From the NCBI GenBank assembly GCA_016793325.1, contig JAEUKI010000056.1, forward strand, positions 4,221 through 68,220: a stretch of 64,000 nucleotides of DNA, read 5' to 3'. Source of the DNA: Myxococcales bacterium. Lineage in GTDB: Bacteria > Myxococcota_A > Polyangia > Polyangiales > Ga0077539. The translations under genes were made by a program, and so were the position numbers. This document shows positions 22,860 to 55,479 of the stretch, one piece after another (positions within the stretch are counted from its first letter, which is position 1; each line of letters opens with the position of its first letter). Below the pieces are notes generated by a model. That model saw nothing but the letters and a program-made list of their open reading frames with translations. It had not been told where the DNA came from and did not search any database.

Positions 22860-23303
22860 ATGGGATTCGATCCAAACGGCGGGCAAGGCGGACAAGGCGG
22901 ACAAGGCGGATGGCCGGGAGCTCCCCAGCAAGGCGGAGCGTGGGGCGGCCAGCCGCAACAGCCCGGCGCGCCATTTCAACCGCAACAACCGCAAGCAGGG
23001 TTCGGCGCGCCGCAGCCGGGCTTCGGCGCTCCGCCGCAAGCCGGCATGGCGCCGTACGGCGGCGCTCCGATGATGGGCGGCGCCGCGGGCGGCGCGAAGC
23101 CGAAGCAGACGATGCTGCTCCTCGCGATCCTGCCGTTTCTCTTCGGCTTCAGCGGGATCCACAGCTTCTACGCAGGCCACACGGTCAAGGGAATCATCCA
23201 GTTCTTGACCTTCGGCGGCTGCGGAATCTGGCAGCTCATCGACATCATCGGGATCTTCAACGGCTCGTACCGCGACGCCAACGGCCAGCCGCTCGCGCCG
23301 TAA
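22860..23303 (+). CDS. TM2-domain membrane protein with Gly/Gln/Pro-rich low-complexity N-terminus
   Basis: N-terminal GGQGGQGGQGGWPGAPQQGGAWGGQPQQPG.. C-terminal TM2 domain (LLLAILPFLFGFSGIHSFYAGHTVKGIIQFLTFGGCGIWQLIDIIGIF). Confidence 0.8.
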   Translation: MGFDPNGGQGGQGGQGGWPGAPQQGGAWGGQPQQPGAPFQPQQPQAGFGAPQPGFGAPPQAGMAPYGGAPMMGGAAGGAKPKQTMLLLAILPFLFGFSGIHSFYAGHTVKGIIQFLTFGGCGIWQLIDIIGIFNGSYRDANGQPLAP

Positions 23304-23398
23304 TTCTCGCGATGCGCTCGTAGGGGCTGTGGAGTCCAGTGGTGGGGGCTGGACGAACGCGCTCGCGCGGTGTGTTCTCACGCAGTGAGCGCGGTGCG

Positions 23399-23932
23399 AT
23401 GAGCGACGACGAGCGAGACACTCGAAGCGGTCCGCGCTCGCCTCGGTGGTTCGCCGCGGGCGCGCTCGGGCTCGGGCTGCTCGTCGGCGTCGCGCTCTAC
23501 TCGGGCGTCGCCACGAGCGGCGGCGCGACGTGCCCATCGCGCTGGCTCTTCGACGCCCCCTGCGCCGGCTGTGGGATGACTCGCGCGTTCGAAGGGCTGC
23601 TTCACGGCGACCTCGGCTACGCGCTTCGCGCGAACGTCGTTTCGCCGGTGCTGTTCACGCTCGCCGCGATCGTCGCGCTCGTGTTCGGCGCGCAGCTCGC
23701 GACCGGACGCGACCTCTACCGCGCGCTCGCTGCGCGGAGGCTCGTGCGCGGCGGCGTATCAGCGCTGCTCCTCGCGCTCGTATTGATTGCGTGGGTTAGT
23801 AATCAAATGCGCCACAAGCGCGGCGAAGGTCCACTTCACCTCCGCACGTGGCATCACGAGCACGGGCGAGCCCCGCTCGTCGATCTGCCGGGGGGCGAGC
23901 GGCAGGGTCAATCGCGGCCGGTCGCGCACTGA
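23399..23932 (+). CDS. DUF2752-domain membrane protein
   Basis: Start MSDDERD. Signature CPSRWLFDAPCAGCGMTRAF (CPxxxxxxxPCPGCGxTRA of DUF2752) followed by TM helices. Confidence 0.75.
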   Translation: MSDDERDTRSGPRSPRWFAAGALGLGLLVGVALYSGVATSGGATCPSRWLFDAPCAGCGMTRAFEGLLHGDLGYALRANVVSPVLFTLAAIVALVFGAQLATGRDLYRALAARRLVRGGVSALLLALVLIAWVSNQMRHKRGEGPLHLRTWHHEHGRAPLVDLPGGERQGQSRPVAH

Positions 23933-25803
23933 CAGAGCGAGCGTCGCGCGAGCATCGCGCACTGGCCTGCGCGGAGCCGCGCGACGTCGTCCGCGGCGGG
24001 TCCGGGGCCGAGGCGAGCGACCTGTCCGACGACGGTCTGCAGCTCGTCACATCGATCGCTCGTTCGAAGGAGCACCCTCGCCCGCTGCGTGGCGTCGAGC
24101 AGCGCGATCCGCTCGCGCGCGAGGCGTCCAGCGCGGCGACGAGCGTCGCTCGTCGGGCCGAACACCGTCTCTTCAGCGAGCACGCGCGCCGCGGTGCGCG
24201 AGCCCGCGAAGGACGCAGCGTGCAACAACGTCTCTGCGGCGCTCGCGGCGCTGTCGTCGGCGAGCGCCTTCGTGAGCGCGCGCACGAGCGGCTCGTCTTC
24301 GACGAGGCTCGGGTCTCGCGAGACGGCGTCGGCGAACGTGGCGACCGCTTCGCTGTTCTTTCGATCGGCGCTGAGCAGCAGCGCGAGCTGATACGCGACG
24401 AGCCCGTCGTCGTCCGCGTGGGGTCGACGCGCGCGCCGGCCGCGGAGCATTTCGATCGCCGCCGTGGTGTCGCCACGAGCGGCGACCCTGAGGGCGCGGG
24501 CGACCTCGCTCTCGCCACGGAGCGCGCTCATTCGGCGCGCCATCGGGAGCGCGCGGCCCTTGGGCGCGTTGCTGTGCGTGAGCGAGTACACGACGCTGTA
24601 GACGCCCGAGAGCAGGACGCCGACCGTCACGAGCAGCACCGGGAGCAGCACGACGAGCGGCACGTAGCCGAAGCGCCCCAACCAATACACAGGGAGGCCA
24701 GCGATCTTCGACGGCGGAACGAACCCGGTTTGCGTCGCGCTCCGCGGTTCAGCTCGGTCTTGGACGGTCGGCGCCGTGTTGGACACCGTGGGCGGCGCGG
24801 TGAGGTCGCTCGCGGACGCGAGCACCGTGTTGTGGTGCTGCATCGCTGACGCAGGCTCGGTCGACGCGTATGCGTACGCCGATCGTGCGACGGCGTCGGC
24901 GAGCGCGACGTCGATCGCTTCCATCGCGTCGGCGACGGAGGCGTACCGCTCGATGGGGCTCTTCGCGAGGACGCGATCGAAGACGCCGTCGATCGCTGGC
25001 GGGAGCTCGGGCGCGAACGACGTCGCGCGAGGAATCGCGCCATTGACCTGCAAATCGAGCAGGTCGATGAGGTTCTTGTGGTCGAACGGCTTTCGCCCTG
25101 CGAGCAGCTCGAACGCGAGGATGCCGAACGCGTACTGATCCGCTGCGGCGTCGACGCGGCGGCCGAGCGCTTGTTCGGGGGACATGTAGTGCGGCGTTCC
25201 GAAGATCACGCCGGTCTGCGTGAGCGGCTTCTCGCTGTCGGTCGCGCTCGTCATGCGCGCGATGCCGAAGTCGATGATCTTCACGAGCTCGTCGGCGCCA
25301 GGTCGATCGACGACGAGGATGTTCTCGGGCTTGAGGTCGCGGTGAACGATCCCGAGGTTGTGCGCGCGCGTGAGGGCCGACGCGATTTGTCGCAGCAATT
25401 TCAGGGCGCGAAGCAGCGAGACTCGCTCGTCGCTCGCGGTCACTTCGCGGAGCGAGCGCCCCTCGATGTACTCCATCGCGAGGAAGAACGTCCCGTCTTG
25501 GAGCTGACCGAAGTCCGTCGCTGCGACGACGTTTTCGTGGTCGAGCTGGGCCATGGCGCGCGCTTCGCGCTCGAACCGCGCCCGCACCTCGGGGTTGGCG
25601 TGCATGTCCGCGTGCAGCGTCTTGATCGCGACCTTCTTGTGCAGCGCGACGTGCTCCGCGACGTAGACGGCGCCCATCCCGCCTTCGCCGATGCGCTCGA
25701 GCACGCGAAAGCGCCCGGCGACGACGGCGCCGACGAGCGGGTCGGGCGCGGGCGCAGCGAGCGCGTTCGAGGGACCAACGGTCTGTGCGTCGCGATCAGT
25801 CAT
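23908..25803 (-). CDS. Ser/Thr protein kinase with TM helix and C-terminal TPR-like helical domain
   Basis: Start MTDRDAQ. GEGGMGAVY, VAIK, HRDLKPEN, DFG, SPE motifs. TM LVVLLPVLLVTVGVLLSGVY. Confidence 0.85.
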   Translation of the reverse strand: MTDRDAQTVGPSNALAAPAPDPLVGAVVAGRFRVLERIGEGGMGAVYVAEHVALHKKVAIKTLHADMHANPEVRARFEREARAMAQLDHENVVAATDFGQLQDGTFFLAMEYIEGRSLREVTASDERVSLLRALKLLRQIASALTRAHNLGIVHRDLKPENILVVDRPGADELVKIIDFGIARMTSATDSEKPLTQTGVIFGTPHYMSPEQALGRRVDAAADQYAFGILAFELLAGRKPFDHKNLIDLLDLQVNGAIPRATSFAPELPPAIDGVFDRVLAKSPIERYASVADAMEAIDVALADAVARSAYAYASTEPASAMQHHNTVLASASDLTAPPTVSNTAPTVQDRAEPRSATQTGFVPPSKIAGLPVYWLGRFGYVPLVVLLPVLLVTVGVLLSGVYSVVYSLTHSNAPKGRALPMARRMSALRGESEVARALRVAARGDTTAAIEMLRGRRARRPHADDDGLVAYQLALLLSADRKNSEAVATFADAVSRDPSLVEDEPLVRALTKALADDSAASAAETLLHAASFAGSRTAARVLAEETVFGPTSDARRRAGRLARERIALLDATQRARVLLRTSDRCDELQTVVGQVARLGPGPAADDVARLRAGQCAMLARRSLCQCATGRD

Positions 25804-25861
25804 ACGGAGGCTTTGCAAGCGGGACTCGGTACCAAGGAAACGCCTGTCGGCGCTCGTTCAT

Positions 25862-50514: not shown

Positions 50515-52590
50515 TCAGTGCGTCGCCCGAGGCGGGGGCAAGCTCGCGCGAAGGCCCTCGCGAGGCGGCTCTGCGGCCGGGAGCGCGACGACGAACGTTG
50601 TTCCGCGGCCGCTCTGCGTGCGCAGCTCGATGCGACCTCCTGCGCCCGCGACGAGCCGCTGCGAGATCGCGAGGCCGAGTCCTGTTCCCTGCGCCTTCGT
50701 CGTGACGAACGGCGTGAACAGTTTCGGGACGAGCTTCGCGTCGATGCCGGGCCCCGAGTCGCGAACGACGATCTCCGCCATCGGAGCGCTCGCTTTCTTC
50801 TGCACGACGACGGACACGCGGCCTCGCCCGTCCATCGCCTCGACGGCGTTGCGCACGAGGTTCATCACGACCTGCCTCAGCTGCGCGGGGTCGATCCTCA
50901 CGAGCGGAACTTCTTTCTCCGCGATGAACTGAATCTCCACCGACGGAGGCAAGTCCTTCTTCACGATCTGCAGCGTCCGTTCGACGGCTTCGCGCGGGTC
51001 GACCGTCTCGAGCGTCCCCTGCCCCGGCCGCGCGTAGTCGAGGAAGTTTCGAACGACGCGATCGAGGCGATCGACCTCTTCGCCGATGATCTGGAGGTAC
51101 TCGTCTTCGGCCGTCCCCTTCGACGCTTGGGGCTGCATGAGCTGCACCGCGGCCTTGATGCTGCCGAGTGGATTTCTGATTTCGTGTGCGAGTCCTGCGG
51201 CCATCTCGCCCATGGCCGCGAGGCGATCGCGCTCCTTGATTCGCTGATGCCCGCGCGTGTTTTCGAGCACGACCGCGATCTGCGCGCCGAGCTCGCGGAG
51301 GATCTGCACCTCTTCGAAGCTGAAAGGCTCGGCGATGCGATCGTCGCCCAAGAAGAGCACCCCCGTGAGCTGCGTCTGCTCGTCGAGCACGGGGATCGCC
51401 ACGGACGCGTGCTGCCTTCGGAGCGTCGTGGTGACCTCCATGGGCTCGACCGCGTCGCGAATTTCGCCGCGGGCGCGGGCGTCGCTCGCGTCGCGCTCGA
51501 GCGGCTCGGCGACGATCGAGCCCTCTTTGTTCAAGCGCTCGATCATCGCGCGGCTCGCGGCGTACTCGAGTCGCTCGGGCGGCGCCGCGCCGAGGTGGAC
51601 GAAGAGGTCGAGGCCCTTGCGCTCGGGGTCGACGAAGTAGAGCGACGCGTTGGTGATGCGACGCGAAGCCGCGAGCCCGTCGATGAGCTCTCGCCCGAGC
51701 TCGTCGAGCTCGAGCACGTGGGCGAGCTTCGCGCGGAGCGCCGTGATCGAGGTCTCGAGGTCGAAGCGCTCGCGAAAGAAGAACCGCGCCACTTGGGTCT
51801 CGGTCTTCGCCCGCAAAGGATCGAGCGGAATCAAGATCACGAGCGACGCGACGATGGCGTTGAGCACGTACGGCGCTTGTCCGCGGGCCCAGTCGACGAG
51901 CAGGTAGTAGACGCCCGCCAGGACGAACGCGAGCGCGCTGAGCACCACAAGTCGCGCCGTGAGCTCGTAGAGGTCGACGAGGCGCGAGCGCTCCATCACC
52001 TGCGAGAGCATGAAGAGCACGATGAGGACGAGGGTCGTTCCGACCGGGCCCACGTCGACGCCGGAGAACGGCAGGAGGTCCGTGAAGAAGACGACGGTGG
52101 TCGCGAGCGAAACGCCTGCAAAATACGCGGCGCGGGCGCGCTCGACGCGCGAGTTCGCAGCGCGGGCTTTCGCGACGAACTCCCACGAGAGCGCCGCGAG
52201 CAGACCGACGACGTAGATCGACAGGACGGCGCGTGCGGCGGTGTGGGCGTGCCACGGGCTGATCGACAGGACGAGCAGGGGGATGCCCAGACCAGTGGCC
52301 CACGCGAGCAGACGGCTCGGCTTCAACGACGATTCGCTGAAGAACGCGCGAAGCGAGCGCACGCCGAACTGCGGGAGCACAACCAGCGAAATCGACGCGA
52401 GGTGCGAGAACACCGCCACGGAGGGGAAGCGATTTCGCAGAAAGAGCGCCGCGAACCAGAGGCCCACGGTGCCGCCAAACGCAGCGAACAACCAGTGCAA
52501 GCGGCGTTTTCGCTCGCGCAGGAGCACGCCCGCCACGATCGAAAAGGCAATGAAGGCGGAGATGAGCTCCGTTTGGGCGCGAAGGTTCAT
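50515..52590 (-). CDS. Membrane sensor histidine kinase (multi-TM N-terminal domain + GAF-like + HisKA + HATPase_c)
   Basis: Start MNLRAQT (verified in DNA). ~8 predicted TM helices. H-box AAGLAHEIRNPLGSIKA. N/G boxes (MNLVRNAVEAM, DSGPGI, GTGLGLAIS). Confidence 0.8.
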   Translation of the reverse strand: MNLRAQTELISAFIAFSIVAGVLLRERKRRLHWLFAAFGGTVGLWFAALFLRNRFPSVAVFSHLASISLVVLPQFGVRSLRAFFSESSLKPSRLLAWATGLGIPLLVLSISPWHAHTAARAVLSIYVVGLLAALSWEFVAKARAANSRVERARAAYFAGVSLATTVVFFTDLLPFSGVDVGPVGTTLVLIVLFMLSQVMERSRLVDLYELTARLVVLSALAFVLAGVYYLLVDWARGQAPYVLNAIVASLVILIPLDPLRAKTETQVARFFFRERFDLETSITALRAKLAHVLELDELGRELIDGLAASRRITNASLYFVDPERKGLDLFVHLGAAPPERLEYAASRAMIERLNKEGSIVAEPLERDASDARARGEIRDAVEPMEVTTTLRRQHASVAIPVLDEQTQLTGVLFLGDDRIAEPFSFEEVQILRELGAQIAVVLENTRGHQRIKERDRLAAMGEMAAGLAHEIRNPLGSIKAAVQLMQPQASKGTAEDEYLQIIGEEVDRLDRVVRNFLDYARPGQGTLETVDPREAVERTLQIVKKDLPPSVEIQFIAEKEVPLVRIDPAQLRQVVMNLVRNAVEAMDGRGRVSVVVQKKASAPMAEIVVRDSGPGIDAKLVPKLFTPFVTTKAQGTGLGLAISQRLVAGAGGRIELRTQSGRGTTFVVALPAAEPPREGLRASLPPPRATH

Positions 52591-52644
52591 GGGTGGCTCT
52601 CGAGCGGCACCGAGTCTAGAATCGATTCCGAGGCTCGATCGCGA

Positions 52645-53607
52645 ATGACGTATTGGGGTCCGGGAACTGTCCCGCCCGGCTACATGCTCGCCCCCGACGG
52701 AACGCTCGTTCCCGTCGTTCCAGGCGCACCGGTTCAGCACCATCCCGTGCCGCCCGCCGCGCCGTATGGCGCCGTGGTCGCCGTGCCCTCGCCTGTGCCG
52801 TACGGCGCGGTGCCCTACGGGTATGTGCCGCAGCCGGCGCCTGTCCCCGTGATGGTGCCGCAGCCGATGCCGCAGATGGTGGCGGTGCAGCCCGTGGTCG
52901 TCGCGACCCACGTCGTGGGCAACGTGGCCGTCGCGCAAGGGCACGCATACGCGGGCTACGTGCAGCAAACCGCGTACGTTCAAGCGCCGATCGCGCAGCC
53001 CATGCAACCGGTCCCGACGCACGCGACCGCGCCCGGAGCGCCGCAGGCGTACGCCCCAGGGTGGACGCACCCGCAGCCCGCTCAACACGGCGGATCCCAG
53101 GACAACGCCCTCGCGATCGCGCGCGAAGACAGCCTTTCGGCGCGCGATCGATACCAGGGCGAAGCTGGCTCCGTGGGAGCGCTCTCGCTCGCCACGAGCG
53201 GATTGATCCTCGCGACGGCGCTCGCGACGGTGACGTTCTTCGTCGTTCCCGTGGGCGCCGTGCTCGCGTCCGCGGCGGTCGCGAGCGGCGTGACGGGGGG
53301 GCTCGGATTGTGGCTTCTTCGTCAGCGAAAGAAGCTCCGCGGCAAGGTCGACCTCGACCCAGAGATTCAAGTGCGGCTCCTCGACCTCGCGACGAAGAAG
53401 CGCGGACGATTGACGGTCACCACGACGGCACAAGGTCTCGGGCTCACCCTCGATGAAGCAGAACGCGCCCTCCAGGCGATGGCGGCATCGCACTACGTCG
53501 ACGTCGAGCTCGACCCAGACGTGGGCGTGGTGACGTACGTGTTTCGTGAGCTCGTCCCCACCCCGCCGCAGCTGCCCGCATCTACCACCGAGGCTCCCAC
53601 TCGATGA
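52645..53607 (+). CDS. Pro-rich membrane protein (N-terminal PxP/Y-rich region, TM, C-terminal globular domain)
   Basis: Start MTYWGPG. Low-complexity VP/PY-rich N-terminus. TM LILATALATVTFFVVPVGAVLASAAVASGV. ATGA-coupled to the downstream TM2 gene. Confidence 0.55.
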   Translation: MTYWGPGTVPPGYMLAPDGTLVPVVPGAPVQHHPVPPAAPYGAVVAVPSPVPYGAVPYGYVPQPAPVPVMVPQPMPQMVAVQPVVVATHVVGNVAVAQGHAYAGYVQQTAYVQAPIAQPMQPVPTHATAPGAPQAYAPGWTHPQPAQHGGSQDNALAIAREDSLSARDRYQGEAGSVGALSLATSGLILATALATVTFFVVPVGAVLASAAVASGVTGGLGLWLLRQRKKLRGKVDLDPEIQVRLLDLATKKRGRLTVTTTAQGLGLTLDEAERALQAMAASHYVDVELDPDVGVVTYVFRELVPTPPQLPASTTEAPTR

Positions 53608-54554
53608 ACAACGACGACCACAGCACCGGGACGTCGAACACCATGACTGCTGAAGCGAGCGATCCGCTGGCGGACGCGCTTCGCAACGACAAGCCGCCGC
53701 CCGCTGCCGCGCACTCGACCCCGCCGCCGAGCGAGCGCTCTTCGCCGCCCGCGCCGCTCGCGCCCGTGGGCGCGTGGCCGCCGCCGAACCCGACCGCCGC
53801 CAACGCGCCAGTGTATGCGCAGCCGAACGCGCACGACGCGCCCCGCGCGCCGCAGCCGACGCCCGTGTACGCACACCCCGCGTACGGCGCTCCGGCCGCT
53901 GCGTTTCCGCAAGCGCCGGCGCCCGATCCCTACAAACCACCGCAGTACCAGCAGCCGTATCCACCGCCGCCCGCGCAGCACGCGCCGAGCCCGTACGGCC
54001 ACTACCAACAGCCTCAGTACCAGCACCCACAATATCAACAGCCGCAGTACCCACCGCAGCCGCAGTATCCGCAGCCTCAGTACGCACCGCAGCCTCCGTA
54101 CGCGCAGCCATACGCGCAGCCATACGCGCAGCCGCAACCAGCGCCGGTCGCGCCGCAGTTGCTGCCGTACGCGCCCGCGCCGATGCCTGCGGCGTACACA
54201 GCGCCCGCGCAGACGTACGCGATCGTTCCGGCGCCGCAGATGATGCCAATGGTCGTGCAGCAGCCGATGATGATGGTCGCGCCGGCGCCGCAGATGGTTC
54301 AGTACGGGCAGGTCGCGCAGACGGGCATCGTCCGCGTCGGAAACGCCAACCGCCTCGTGTTCGCGGTGCTCGCGTTTCTTCTGGGATTCATCGGCTTGCA
54401 CAAGTTTTATCAGGGCAAGCCTGTGTGGGGATTGATCTACCTGCTCACGTCGTGGACGGGCGTTCCTGCGATCGTGTCGGTGATCGAAGGGCTCGTGGCG
54501 CTGTTCCAGACGGACGCTGCGTTCGACGCGGACAACAACTTGCGCGCGATCTGA
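53604..54554 (+). CDS. TM2-domain membrane protein with long Pro/Gln/Tyr-rich (PQY repeat) N-terminus
   Basis: ~200 aa of QPQYQ/PYAQPYAQ repeats, then TM2 domain (RLVFAVLAFLLGFIGLHKFYQGKPVWGLIYLLTSWTGVPAIVSVIEGLVALF). Confidence 0.75.
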   Translation: MNNDDHSTGTSNTMTAEASDPLADALRNDKPPPAAAHSTPPPSERSSPPAPLAPVGAWPPPNPTAANAPVYAQPNAHDAPRAPQPTPVYAHPAYGAPAAAFPQAPAPDPYKPPQYQQPYPPPPAQHAPSPYGHYQQPQYQHPQYQQPQYPPQPQYPQPQYAPQPPYAQPYAQPYAQPQPAPVAPQLLPYAPAPMPAAYTAPAQTYAIVPAPQMMPMVVQQPMMMVAPAPQMVQYGQVAQTGIVRVGNANRLVFAVLAFLLGFIGLHKFYQGKPVWGLIYLLTSWTGVPAIVSVIEGLVALFQTDAAFDADNNLRAI

Positions 54555-54627: not shown

Positions 54628-55479
54628 ATGCGACCCGCTTCGTTACTGCGTTGCGCGCGAACGATCGCGCCGCTCGTCTTCGTTCACTGCGGACCCATGG
54701 GCGAGCCTCCGCCTCCGCCGTGTCCGATGGAGCCGTGCAGCAACGGAACGCCACGGTTCAACCCCAATCCCAGCCCTACGACGGGCGATGGCTCCGTGCC
54801 GACCGACAGCGCCGTTGGCGAAGCAGGCGTGTCCGACGCGTCGCGCTCCGATGGTGGTCCGACGGTGAGCGTTCGAGGCACGGTCGGAGAAGCGATCGCG
54901 ATGCCGCGCACGCGCATGATGGACACGCGCGTCGCGTCGGGTTGGACCGTGCAATCGCTGCTCGATCCCGCGCGCACCACCACGAGCTCGGCGACGGGCA
55001 CGTTCGCGCTCGACGTCGTCTACGACAGCGCTGGCGTCGCGCCCATTCGCGCAGAGACGCTCACGCCGCCGCGGCAGTGCGCGATCGGCCACGGGCGTTC
55101 GGGCAGCGCCGACGTGGCTGTGGTCGCGTTCGAGCAATCGCGGCTCCAGGAGCTCCTCGCGCCGTCCGGCGTCGGGATCGACATCGGAAAAGCGCAGCTC
55201 ATCGTCGAAGTCGAAGACAGCCTCCGCGCGCGCGTGAGCAACGTGAGCGTCACGATCACGCCCGCGACGGTCGAGGGCGTCGCCTACGACATCGAGAACA
55301 CGCGATTCGCGCTCGGAATGGCGACGAGCACGCAAGGGACAGCGCTGGTCACCAACATTGATTTCGTGGGTCCCTCCGCGAAGGTGGACCTCGTGCTCCG
55401 GCGCGACGGTCGGACGCGCGCGATCCCGATCTACTTCGCCCGCGGCTGCACGACGTTCGTCACGGCGCTCGCGCCGTAG
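54628..55479 (+). CDS. Hypothetical secreted protein
   Basis: Signal-like N-terminus ARTIAPLVFVHCG, Pro-rich linker, beta-rich body. Convergent 3' overlap with the phnC-like gene, so one of the two ends may be mis-set. Confidence 0.45.
   Translation: MRPASLLRCARTIAPLVFVHCGPMGEPPPPPCPMEPCSNGTPRFNPNPSPTTGDGSVPTDSAVGEAGVSDASRSDGGPTVSVRGTVGEAIAMPRTRMMDTRVASGWTVQSLLDPARTTTSSATGTFALDVVYDSAGVAPIRAETLTPPRQCAIGHGRSGSADVAVVAFEQSRLQELLAPSGVGIDIGKAQLIVEVEDSLRARVSNVSVTITPATVEGVAYDIENTRFALGMATSTQGTALVTNIDFVGPSAKVDLVLRRDGRTRAIPIYFARGCTTFVTALAP

Follow-up and report, generated by a model that had tools for sequence, protein, structure and literature searches.

A TM2-domain protein with a Pro/Gln/Tyr-rich head and a coupled hairpin-winged-helix protein form a conserved two-gene module in an uncultured myxobacterium

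A stretch of 64,000 nucleotides from a Myxococcales bacterium (assembly GCA_016793325.1, contig JAEUKI010000056.1, positions 4,221 to 68,220 of the forward strand; the whole stretch is referred to below as the window) contains two overlapping genes, p1 and p2. The product of p1 consists of a low-complexity head, a membrane hairpin and a C-terminal winged helix (WH), and that of p2 is a TM2-domain protein with a Pro/Gln/Tyr-rich head and a G[LI]VRV signature. Comparison of this locus with its relatives showed that the hairpin-WH protein and the G[LI]VRV-type TM2 protein form a conserved two-gene module, and the unit is taken as two genes because the other neighbours vary from locus to locus. 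The partner gene p1 is the informative part of the locus, a point missed in an earlier note made from the sequence of the window. As far as searched, neither the pairing nor the WH family has a model in Pfam or NCBIfam, and the pairing is undescribed in the literature. Taken as a whole, the explanation that p1 and p2 are two subunits of a conserved inner-membrane module bearing a platform of disordered heads is considered on balance probable.

A metagenome scan keyed on the TM2 tail motif, which was derived from a seven-sequence alignment, returned 80 loci, and the G[LI]VRV motif was found in seven of them, the other 73 having other TM2 types. The WH was present in all five assessable G[LI]VRV loci, upstream in L014 (an orthologue of the window pair), L015, L018 and L022 and fused in L026. 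Two more G[LI]VRV-type loci, L016 and L021, were left out of the count because their contigs end before the upstream gene. No WH was found within approximately 4 kb of the TM2 gene at any of the 73 loci with other TM2 types. In L015, L018 and L022 the WH gene was just upstream, with either a GTGA overlap or an 11-nt gap after GGAGG, and GTGA or 4-nt overlaps occurred in L015, L018, L094 and L095. When four subfamily members were chosen before their context was known (P0090, P0162, P0073 and P0224), a hairpin-WH gene was located immediately upstream in four of four cases; these upstream genes matched the WH hidden Markov model (HMM) at E=1e-18 to 1e-23, and the overlap was 4 nt in two of them. 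Altogether, outside the clade of the window, the WH was upstream or fused in eight of eight assessable G[LI]VRV loci. The translational coupling of p1 and p2 proposed in the earlier note was also borne out, since the TGA stop codon of p1 overlaps the ATG start codon of p2 as ATGA. This overlap is kept in the orthologous loci L005-L008, and the same gene order with the ATGA overlap was found in six related genomes.

Fusion proteins were found with more than one domain order. Hairpin, WH and GLVRV-TM2 follow each other in L026, WH and TM2 are joined in P0103 (60 bits with the WH HMM), P0180 contains a hairpin, a WH remnant and TM2, and in P0178 the order is TM2-SHOCT-WH. In the fusions the G[LI]VRV motif follows the WH through a linker of 35-45 residues. 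A similar motif, GP[RQH]VRV, occurs approximately eight residues after the WH in 33 of 39 proteins of a TM2-independent branch of the family (P0024-P0062). It is present in cis in none of the 17 p1 orthologues, which have G[LI]VRV on their TM2 partner instead. This distribution suggests that the acidic WH may engage a basic 'VRV' strand, either in cis or in trans.

Searches of p1 against Pfam, NCBIfam, PHROG and PADLOC gave no model match. Its close homologues (n=17) are all on uncultured Polyangiales/Myxococcales-type contigs. The near-invariant N-terminal motif (Table 1) was modelled by AlphaFold2 (AF2) as a small beta-hairpin, with strands at residues 13-15 and 21-23 and a predicted local distance difference test score (pLDDT) of 63-76. 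The head that follows is composed of 21% P, 18% V, 15% A, 10% G and 7% Y, with only 0.7% charged residues, and contains a beta-prone segment at residues 79-98 (VTVTVTT in orthologues). The protein had previously been described as a Pro-rich single-pass membrane protein. This description did not hold, because the hydrophobic stretch of approximately 47 residues is too long for one span and has a central VVPVG turn; it is read as a two-helix hairpin, and a winged helix follows. The hairpin is rich in small residues (AxxxGxxxG), is nearly invariant across the family and is directly followed by the segment RQRKKLRGK (residues 226-234), while the equivalent hairpins of distant relatives turn at GLPWLL.

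The C-terminal domain of p1 was modelled with the order H-E-H-H-E-E and a pLDDT of approximately 80, which corresponds to a winged-helix fold. Foldseek matched this domain to AdcR, CadC and NolR, to the PCI winged helices of Rpn and eIF3, and to ESCRT-II at E values from 3e-3 to 3e-2; the best value was 2.9e-3 (AdcR, CadC) and none was at or below 1e-3. PDB searches with the WH returned PCI and Z-alpha matches that were non-significant. Matches of WH relatives to Rrf2, TrmB, IclR and MarR_2 were all below threshold, and one distant WH protein had a weak match to DUF742 (16.7 bits versus a cut-off of 27). A profile search with the WH retrieved 42 further proteins, mostly of 160-183 residues, with the same plan of hairpin plus WH. 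The WH domains of all 62 family members are net acidic, with charges from -1 to -9 (mean -4.8), and it is on this account that the domain appears more like protein-binding than DNA-binding winged helices. DNA binding by the WH was considered and judged unlikely, as there is no basic recognition helix. In its fold the p1 C-terminus resembles the winged helices of MarR/ArsR, PCI and ESCRT-II proteins, but it differs from MarR/ArsR/TrmB regulators in being tethered by a hairpin, in being acidic and in having no family HMM match above threshold.

At the N-terminus, the partners of distant pairs have in common the Gly-rich motif SVGGPGGIQIxGGxVQ, which is not present in p1 of the window. Because this motif stands in the distant partners and MTxWGPGxxPPGYMLAPDGTLVP stands in p1, the partner head would also be modular.

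The assignment of p2 to the TM2 family was upheld. Pfam PF05154 matched residues 249-296 at E=7.4e-14, with 52.1 bits versus a cut-off of 27.9, and no match was obtained with NCBIfam or PADLOC. The TM2 region also matched four phage PHROG families of unknown function (phrog_10680, E=2.5e-19). In an AF2 model built from a 109-sequence alignment, residues 1-240 had no secondary structure (pLDDT 41-58), and residues 241-316 were modelled at pLDDT 92-98. Helices were placed at residues 250-260, 265-269, 273-281 and 287-301 (pLDDT 94-98), with the loop HKFYQGK, and the tail formed a helix at residues 304-311 and a strand at 313-315. Residues G264, H266, Y269 and G276 are invariant across the 109 sequences, and the tail residues F, D and N are invariant in two TM2-subfamily alignments. 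One short predicted strand flanks the hairpin on each side (pLDDT 92-98), and in this model the two strands may pair to form a small cap where both termini emerge. The subfamily elements MVVQQ, GIVRVGNANR and TDAAFDADNNLRAI are all present in p2, with the tail motif AFDADNNLRAI. At the position of P-x-N-[IV]-V-V-Q-N, p2 has the divergent form MPMVVQQ and its orthologues have VVQVVVQQQ or VVHVVVQQQ. In the PDB, neither Foldseek nor HMM searches found a solved structure resembling the p2 TM2 region. The protein starts with MNNDDHSTGTSN, and a Kyte-Doolittle hydropathy window scan found no hydrophobic signal segment in residues 1-240.

When the TM2 region of p2 alone (81 residues) was used as the query in an exhaustive search at E<=1e-3, a total of 3,325 cluster representatives (50% identity) matched. 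Among the best 150 of these, 70 had at least about 50 residues before the TM2 match, and in 14 of the 70 the head consisted of at least 60% P/Q/Y/G/N/S. The motif [IVM][IV][IV][QH][NQ], of the xVVQN type, was found in 21 of the best 150 representatives. The order of elements in the subfamily is a low-complexity head, P-x-N-[IV]-V-V-Q-N, a Gly-rich turn, G[LI]VR[VT]xN+x+, the TM2 hairpin and a SDxxFDxKYNxRL tail. By these features p2 reads as a normal member of a large, widespread TM2 subfamily. Its relatives are labelled 'TM2 domain-containing membrane protein YozV' in IMG. The heads of TM2 relatives include zinc ribbons, SHOCT and WH domains and, as judged by eye, GYF_2-like (P0114, P0117, P0199) and FHA-like (P0081) domains; such varied interaction heads are consistent with TM2 as a general membrane anchor or assembly module.

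The head of p2 (residues 1-235) is composed of 27% P, 18% A, 13% Q and 9% Y with 6% charged residues, and its core (residues 110-180) of 34% P, 30% Q and 18% Y with approximately 1% charged residues. The earlier note had described a repeat region of approximately 200 residues. A low-complexity head with PQY repeats is indeed present, but just about 70 residues (110-179) are repetitive, and the rest contains conserved short motifs. The plan of the head in L005-L008 is MNNDD..., VGAWPPP, APVYAQP, PQPTPVYAHPAYG, the repeats, the Met-rich VVQQ segment and TM2. The repeat units vary by orthologue, with NPYAQP occurring six times in L005, QPAYAP five times in L007 and PQYAQ in L008. At the DNA level the repeats of p2 have periods of 12-33 nt and are degenerate (78-80% matches), and perfect 12-nt YAQP units are limited to three, at 54096-54131. 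Whether the tract was an assembly artefact had been raised in the earlier note, and the tract was found to be genuine. The independent assembly L012, with 95.4% DNA identity, contains the entire tract with two YAQP units versus three in the window, and there is no other length difference in p2 between the two strains. The L013 contig ends within the tract and is identical to L012 as far as it is covered. A collapsed-repeat artefact was thus ruled out by L012, in part by L013, and by the degenerate DNA repeats.

The composition of the p2 head had also been regarded as rare in bacteria. To the contrary, heads rich in P/Q/Y(G) are standard in the large TM2 subfamily. Across distant members, whose TM2 identity to p2 is 44-50%, the heads contain 18-27% P, 10-28% Q and 5-9% Y, with near-zero charge and one aromatic residue per 6-9 residues. 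Alanine is found in the heads of this clade where other members use glycine. It appears from these values that the composition of the head is conserved and its sequence is not. The label 'prion-like' fits loosely. The Q content of 13-30% and the 1-6% charged residues agree with it, but with 26-34% P and almost no N the head does not have the low-proline, Q/N-rich composition of such domains, and for this reason it would be a poor amyloid or prion candidate. Charge-poor P/Q/Y regions with short degenerate repeats and fast turnover of units are known from the P/Q linkers of ZipA and FtsK, from the PQGGYQQYN repeats of Sup35 and from the PQQPY repeats of gluten. The p2 head has no homology to these regions, and its proline content is far above that of yeast prion domains. 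Also, the P/Q linkers are internal, whereas in p2 the region stands at the N-terminus, ahead of a membrane hairpin.

Taken together, these features are compatible with the following arrangement. Subunit A (p1) would present a variable cytoplasmic head, a tight two-helix hairpin and an acidic WH of the non-DNA-binding type. Subunit B (p2) would present a charge-poor P/Q/Y head followed by a beta-prone xVVQ[NQ] segment; the basic G[LI]VRV strand would precede the TM2 hairpin, and a C-terminal helix and strand would fold back on the G[LI]VRV strand to give the small cytoplasmic cap. Both termini of p1 and of p2 would face the cytoplasm. For TM2 this side is the most likely one, because WH domains flank TM2 on either side in the fusions and the heads of relatives are of cytoplasmic domain types and have no signal peptides; for p1, the head and the WH would both be cytoplasmic because the hydrophobic stretch is read as a hairpin. 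The hairpins of p1 and p2 may pack together in the membrane, and the acidic WH may dock on the basic cap that the G[LI]VRV motif and the tail would form on the TM2 subunit. It is quite likely that the two co-made, hairpin-anchored subunits join in a single membrane complex, in which the WH contacts the cap and two long disordered tails extend into the cytoplasm. More tentative is the suggestion, drawn from composition, that the Tyr/Pro/Gln-rich tails form a sticker-and-spacer platform, flexible and multivalent, for clustering of the complex or for recruitment of cytoplasmic partners at the membrane. The PQY/PYAQ repeats would be the route of this lineage to such a head, with selection acting on composition and aromatic spacing while the repeat units turn over by slippage. 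A further and improbable extension is that the TM2 hairpin and cap form a docking socket for a WH that recognises the cis or trans 'VRV' strand, and that the xVVQN strands and spaced tyrosines of the heads assemble many such units into a lattice, either condensate-like or beta-zippered, bound to the membrane on its cytoplasmic side, as a bacterial prototype of TM2 action. If true, bacteria would have a membrane-organising system of a new kind.

Several observations weigh against the two-subunit arrangement. The AF2 confidence for the p1 hairpin is low (pLDDT approximately 40), and the positive-inside rule is ambiguous for p2, with a charge of +2 before the first TM2 helix and +2 in the loop. 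Three solo-branch hairpin-WH members have no TM2 neighbour, so that the dependence runs from the TM2 subfamily to the WH and not the reverse. The likeness of GPRVRV in cis and GLVRV in trans is that of a short motif and could be coincidence. Physical contact between p1 and p2 was deduced and not directly observed, and the scaffold or clustering role is read from composition only. Finally, the orientation described for metazoan TM2D proteins is the reverse, with the N-terminus outside and the loop inside (PMC8714088).

Four other explanations were considered, each less likely than the two-subunit module. The PQY tract might act as a prion-like amyloid; under this reading the TM2 genes would be members of one paralogous family that differ in their heads, and the operon would share its regulation with the divergent histidine kinase gene next to p1. 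This combination is unlikely. The Q, Y and charge values of the core tract recall the Sup35 oligopeptide repeats, a beta-prone xVVQ[NQ] segment follows the head, and the kinase gene is divergent across a spacer of 54-56 bp that is conserved in five genomes. However, the high proline and near lack of asparagine disfavour cross-beta cores, the head is unstructured in the AF2 model, and the two TM2 genes of the window are of different subfamilies with different partners. Furthermore, tblastn found no orthologue of the kinase beside the distant pairs at any of the eight distant loci, and the unrelated genes L25 and Pth are likewise syntenic within the clade. In another reading, p1 might be a membrane-tethered regulator that is freed by regulated intramembrane proteolysis, with TM2 modulating the protease, by analogy with the action of metazoan TM2D proteins at the gamma-secretase step of Notch, and with the freed WH acting in the cytoplasm, possibly on the kinase promoter. 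Small, helix-destabilising residues are indeed frequent in the hairpin that tethers the WH, the spacer between the kinase gene and p1 has a conserved palindrome-containing core, and a truncated, TM2-only Amx inhibits Notch at the gamma-secretase step (PMC8714088). Nevertheless, this course of events is quite unlikely, given that the WH is acidic in 62 of 62 domains and without a basic recognition helix, no protease gene was found in any locus examined, the fusions leave the WH permanently joined to TM2 and the spacer core is not conserved in L008.

A periplasmic location of the heads, which would then be proline-rich envelope-spanning or wall-binding spacers in the manner of TonB and in the orientation of metazoan TM2D proteins, is very unlikely. 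Charge-poor heads would permit translocation of the N-tail, the TM2 loop contains two lysines and a histidine, and an N-out topology is the one described for the metazoan proteins (PMC8714088). On the other hand, heads of 175-240 residues have no signal peptide, the same side is occupied in relatives by heads of zinc-ribbon, FHA-like and WH type, and the WH, which comes after RQRKK and is found on either side of TM2 in the fusions, places the TM2 termini on its own side. For B. subtilis YozV a phosphotyrosine-containing peptide has been reported (PMC4835898); the peptide looks like the TM2 C-terminal tail and, if it is, would be consistent with a cytoplasmic tail. The least probable of the four is that the genes, derived from a phage or mobile element, encode a small pore-forming, holin-like or toxin/immunity pair whose glycine-zipper hairpins form a channel. 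The phage families matched by the p2 TM2 region, weak structural matches to phage TM2 proteins and the AxxxGxxxG motifs of the p1 hairpin would agree with such an origin, but PADLOC gave no match, no mobile-element genes are nearby, the GC content is uniform, and the chromosomal context with its housekeeping neighbours is stable over genomes at 50-98% identity.

The two-subunit module was also compared with described TM2 proteins. Like other members of Pfam TM2 (PF05154), p2 has the two-helix hairpin with a GxH[KR]FYxG loop and scores above the gathering threshold. Its subgroup differs by the addition of xVVQN, G[LI]VRV, the FDxxYNxRL tail and an obligate hairpin-WH partner; neither the subgroup motifs nor this partner were found in Pfam, NCBIfam or the searched literature. 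What is new here, as far as searched, is therefore the obligate hairpin-WH partner and the fusions, which are undescribed in these libraries and in the literature. With metazoan TM2D1/2/3 (BBP, almondex/amaretto/biscotti) p2 has in common the TM2 hairpin, a divergent N-terminal region and a conserved short C-terminal tail (PMC8714088). The metazoan proteins begin with a signal peptide, their N-domain is extracellular and their intracellular loop contains DRF; their molecular function is unknown (PMC8714088). In contrast, p2 has no signal peptide, the loop LHKFYQGK has HKF in place of DRF, and the orientation would be the opposite. No WH partner is known for metazoan TM2D proteins. In humans TM2D3 is a risk gene for Alzheimer's disease, and in the fly the TM2D genes act on Notch. 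The TM2 domain (PF05154) is widespread, with no known molecular function. For bacterial TM2 proteins no functional study was found in the literature searched, which yielded the metazoan TM2D work and the YozV phosphoproteome entry only. A partner that strictly co-occurs, is coupled and is sometimes fused therefore provides a concrete candidate interaction for a large bacterial TM2 subfamily. The PQY-rich heads are not exotic, and they offer a natural series for the study of disordered, tyrosine-spaced tails at membranes.

Table 1. Features of the p1-p2 locus, of its surroundings in the window and of related loci. Positions are those of the window unless a locus is named; aa, amino acid residues.
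Feature	Position	Strand	Residues	Remarks
Other TM2 gene	22860-23303	+	147 aa	G/Q/P head
DUF2752 gene	23339-23932	+		PF10825 E=4.5e-14; 35 nt downstream of TM2 gene
Sensor histidine kinase gene	50515-52590	-	691 aa	Multi-TM N-terminus, GAF, HisKA, HATPase_c
Divergent kinase/p1 spacer	52591-52644			54 bp
p1	52645-53607	+	320 aa	Hairpin-WH (winged-helix) subunit
p1 N-terminal motif MTxWGPGxxPPGYMLAPDGTLVP	52645-52713	+	aa 1-23	Near-invariant in homologue alignment
p1 low-complexity head	52714-53178	+		AF2 pLDDT <50
p1 invariant YAPGW motif	53050-53064	+	aa 136-140	
p1 two-helix membrane hairpin, VVPVG turn	53179-53319	+	aa 179-225	Alignment, hydropathy
p1 winged-helix domain, predicted cytoplasmic	53347-53556	+	aa 235-304	AF2, net charge -4
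ATGA, p1 stop/p2 start overlap	53604-53607	+		
p2	53604-54554	+	316 aa	TM2-domain subunit, G[LI]VRV subfamily
p2 disordered head, predicted cytoplasmic	53604-54323	+	aa 1-240	AF2, composition
p2 head motif VGAWPPP	53766-53786	+		Conserved L005-L008
p2 head motif APVYAQP	53805-53825	+		Conserved L005-L008
p2 head motif PQPTPVYAHPAYG	53850-53888	+		Conserved L005-L008
PQY/PYAQ repeat tract	53931-54140	+	aa 110-179	TRF, repeat finder
Met-rich MPMVVQQPMMM segment	54243-54275	+		Local form of P-x-N-[IV]-V-V-Q-N
Juxtamembrane GIVRVGNANR, G[LI]VRV signature	54324-54353	+	aa 241-250	AF2 strand 242-244, pLDDT >90
TM2 hairpin, GxHKFYxG loop	54354-54506	+	aa 251-301	Pfam, AF2
Subfamily-specific C-terminal tail QTDAAFDADNNLRAI, helix and terminal strand	54507-54551	+		AF2
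Downstream gene	54628-55479	+	283 aa	No recognised domain
Partners with SVGGPGGIQIxGGxVQ	L015 3-695; L018 2967-3605; L022 2875-3564; L095 2396-3004; L097 2365-2976			
TM2-independent hairpin-WH loci	L009 1139-1669; L010 3928-4440; L011 5001-5357			

The GC content is approximately 68% and uniform along the entire window, and the GC content at third codon positions (GC3) is 0.81-0.87 in the proposed reading frames of the p1-p2 locus. Codon differences between the p2 TM2 region and its L005 orthologue were 21 synonymous and 3 non-synonymous, and orthologues of the genes are present in five related genomes. On the basis of GC3, the synonymous excess and these orthologues, p1 and p2 are real genes under selection. 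The p1 protein is identical to MBL8681951.1 from a Myxococcales bacterium metagenome-assembled genome (MAG), and related genomes among 185,579 species representatives were limited to four Polyangiales/Myxococcales-type MAGs. In genomic terms there is nothing unusual about the locus, a chromosomal operon in an uncultured myxobacterium.

The divergent gene was confirmed as encoding a multi-TM GAF histidine kinase, as stated in the earlier note, with matches to HATPase_c (7e-27), HisKA (1.7e-15) and GAF_3 (1.9e-6). Its NCBIfam matches were AtoS/ZraS/PrsK-like and all below cut-off; over residues 217-671 it resembles the PEP-CTERM/XrtA kinase PrsK (146 bits versus a cut-off of 300), and its catalytic core is of the AtoS/ZraS type. 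The kinase is 71-99.9% identical in L005-L008 and L012, and an unrelated hybrid kinase is found beside the pair in L095. Membership of the kinase in the module was rejected, as its adjacency is kept solely inside the Polyangiales-like clade, along with general synteny. A crude tblastn search of the 64-kb window, with CheY and NtrC receiver sequences, found no receiver domain, and for this reason the kinase appears to be an orphan. Alignment of the spacer from the five genomes revealed an invariant 13-nt core, GAGTCTAGAATCG, at 52612-52624, which contains a palindrome and the sole TCTAGA of the window. The most distant orthologous locus, L008, has a different spacer of 263 bp. A consensus scan of the spacer found no sigma-70 promoter, and GAGG is located 12 nt before the p1 ATG. 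The core may be a candidate for overlapping divergent -10 elements (TAGAAT towards p1) or for an operator.

Next to p2 on the downstream side is a gene whose product is 36-93% identical in L005-L008 and L012; no copy is present at the distant loci, and scans with Pfam and NCBIfam gave no match. Its position beside the pair is conserved within the clade only, and it is at most a candidate member of the module. Its N-terminus, MRPASLLRCARTIAPLVFVHCG, resembles a signal sequence with a non-canonical lipobox. In the TM2-independent branch the hairpin-WH proteins are 118-183 residues long, and most have the cis GPRVRV motif and an acidic tail, P0035 (L011) being without them. Translation-related genes are neighbours at two of the three loci of this branch in Table 1, L31 and RF1 at L009 and SmpB at L010. 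The window pair is located near L25 and Pth, and this shared proximity to translation genes may be coincidence.

The presence of a second TM2 gene in the window was confirmed (PF05154, E=4e-14). The proposal that the two form a paralogous family was not supported, as the aligned TM2 domains are 40% identical over 47 residues, this gene does not have the xVVQN, G[LI]VRV or FDxxYN motifs, and the partners are different. Judged by these motifs, it belongs to a different subfamily and is not a recent or close paralogue of p2. The DUF2752 protein encoded next to it is its likely partner. As in the p1-p2 locus, a small TM2 protein with a low-complexity head is encoded beside a small membrane protein, but the TM2 subfamily (no G[LI]VRV or tail) and the partner family are others. 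The partners of TM2 proteins are thus of more than one kind. An open reading frame of 636 codons (23908-25818), whose translation is Ser/Thr protein kinase-like, converges on the DUF2752 gene. In L097, DUF898 and DUF2752 genes are located approximately 3 kb downstream of the TM2/WH pair, and Pkinase genes are nearby in both L096 and L097, so TM2, DUF2752 and protein kinases may recur together.

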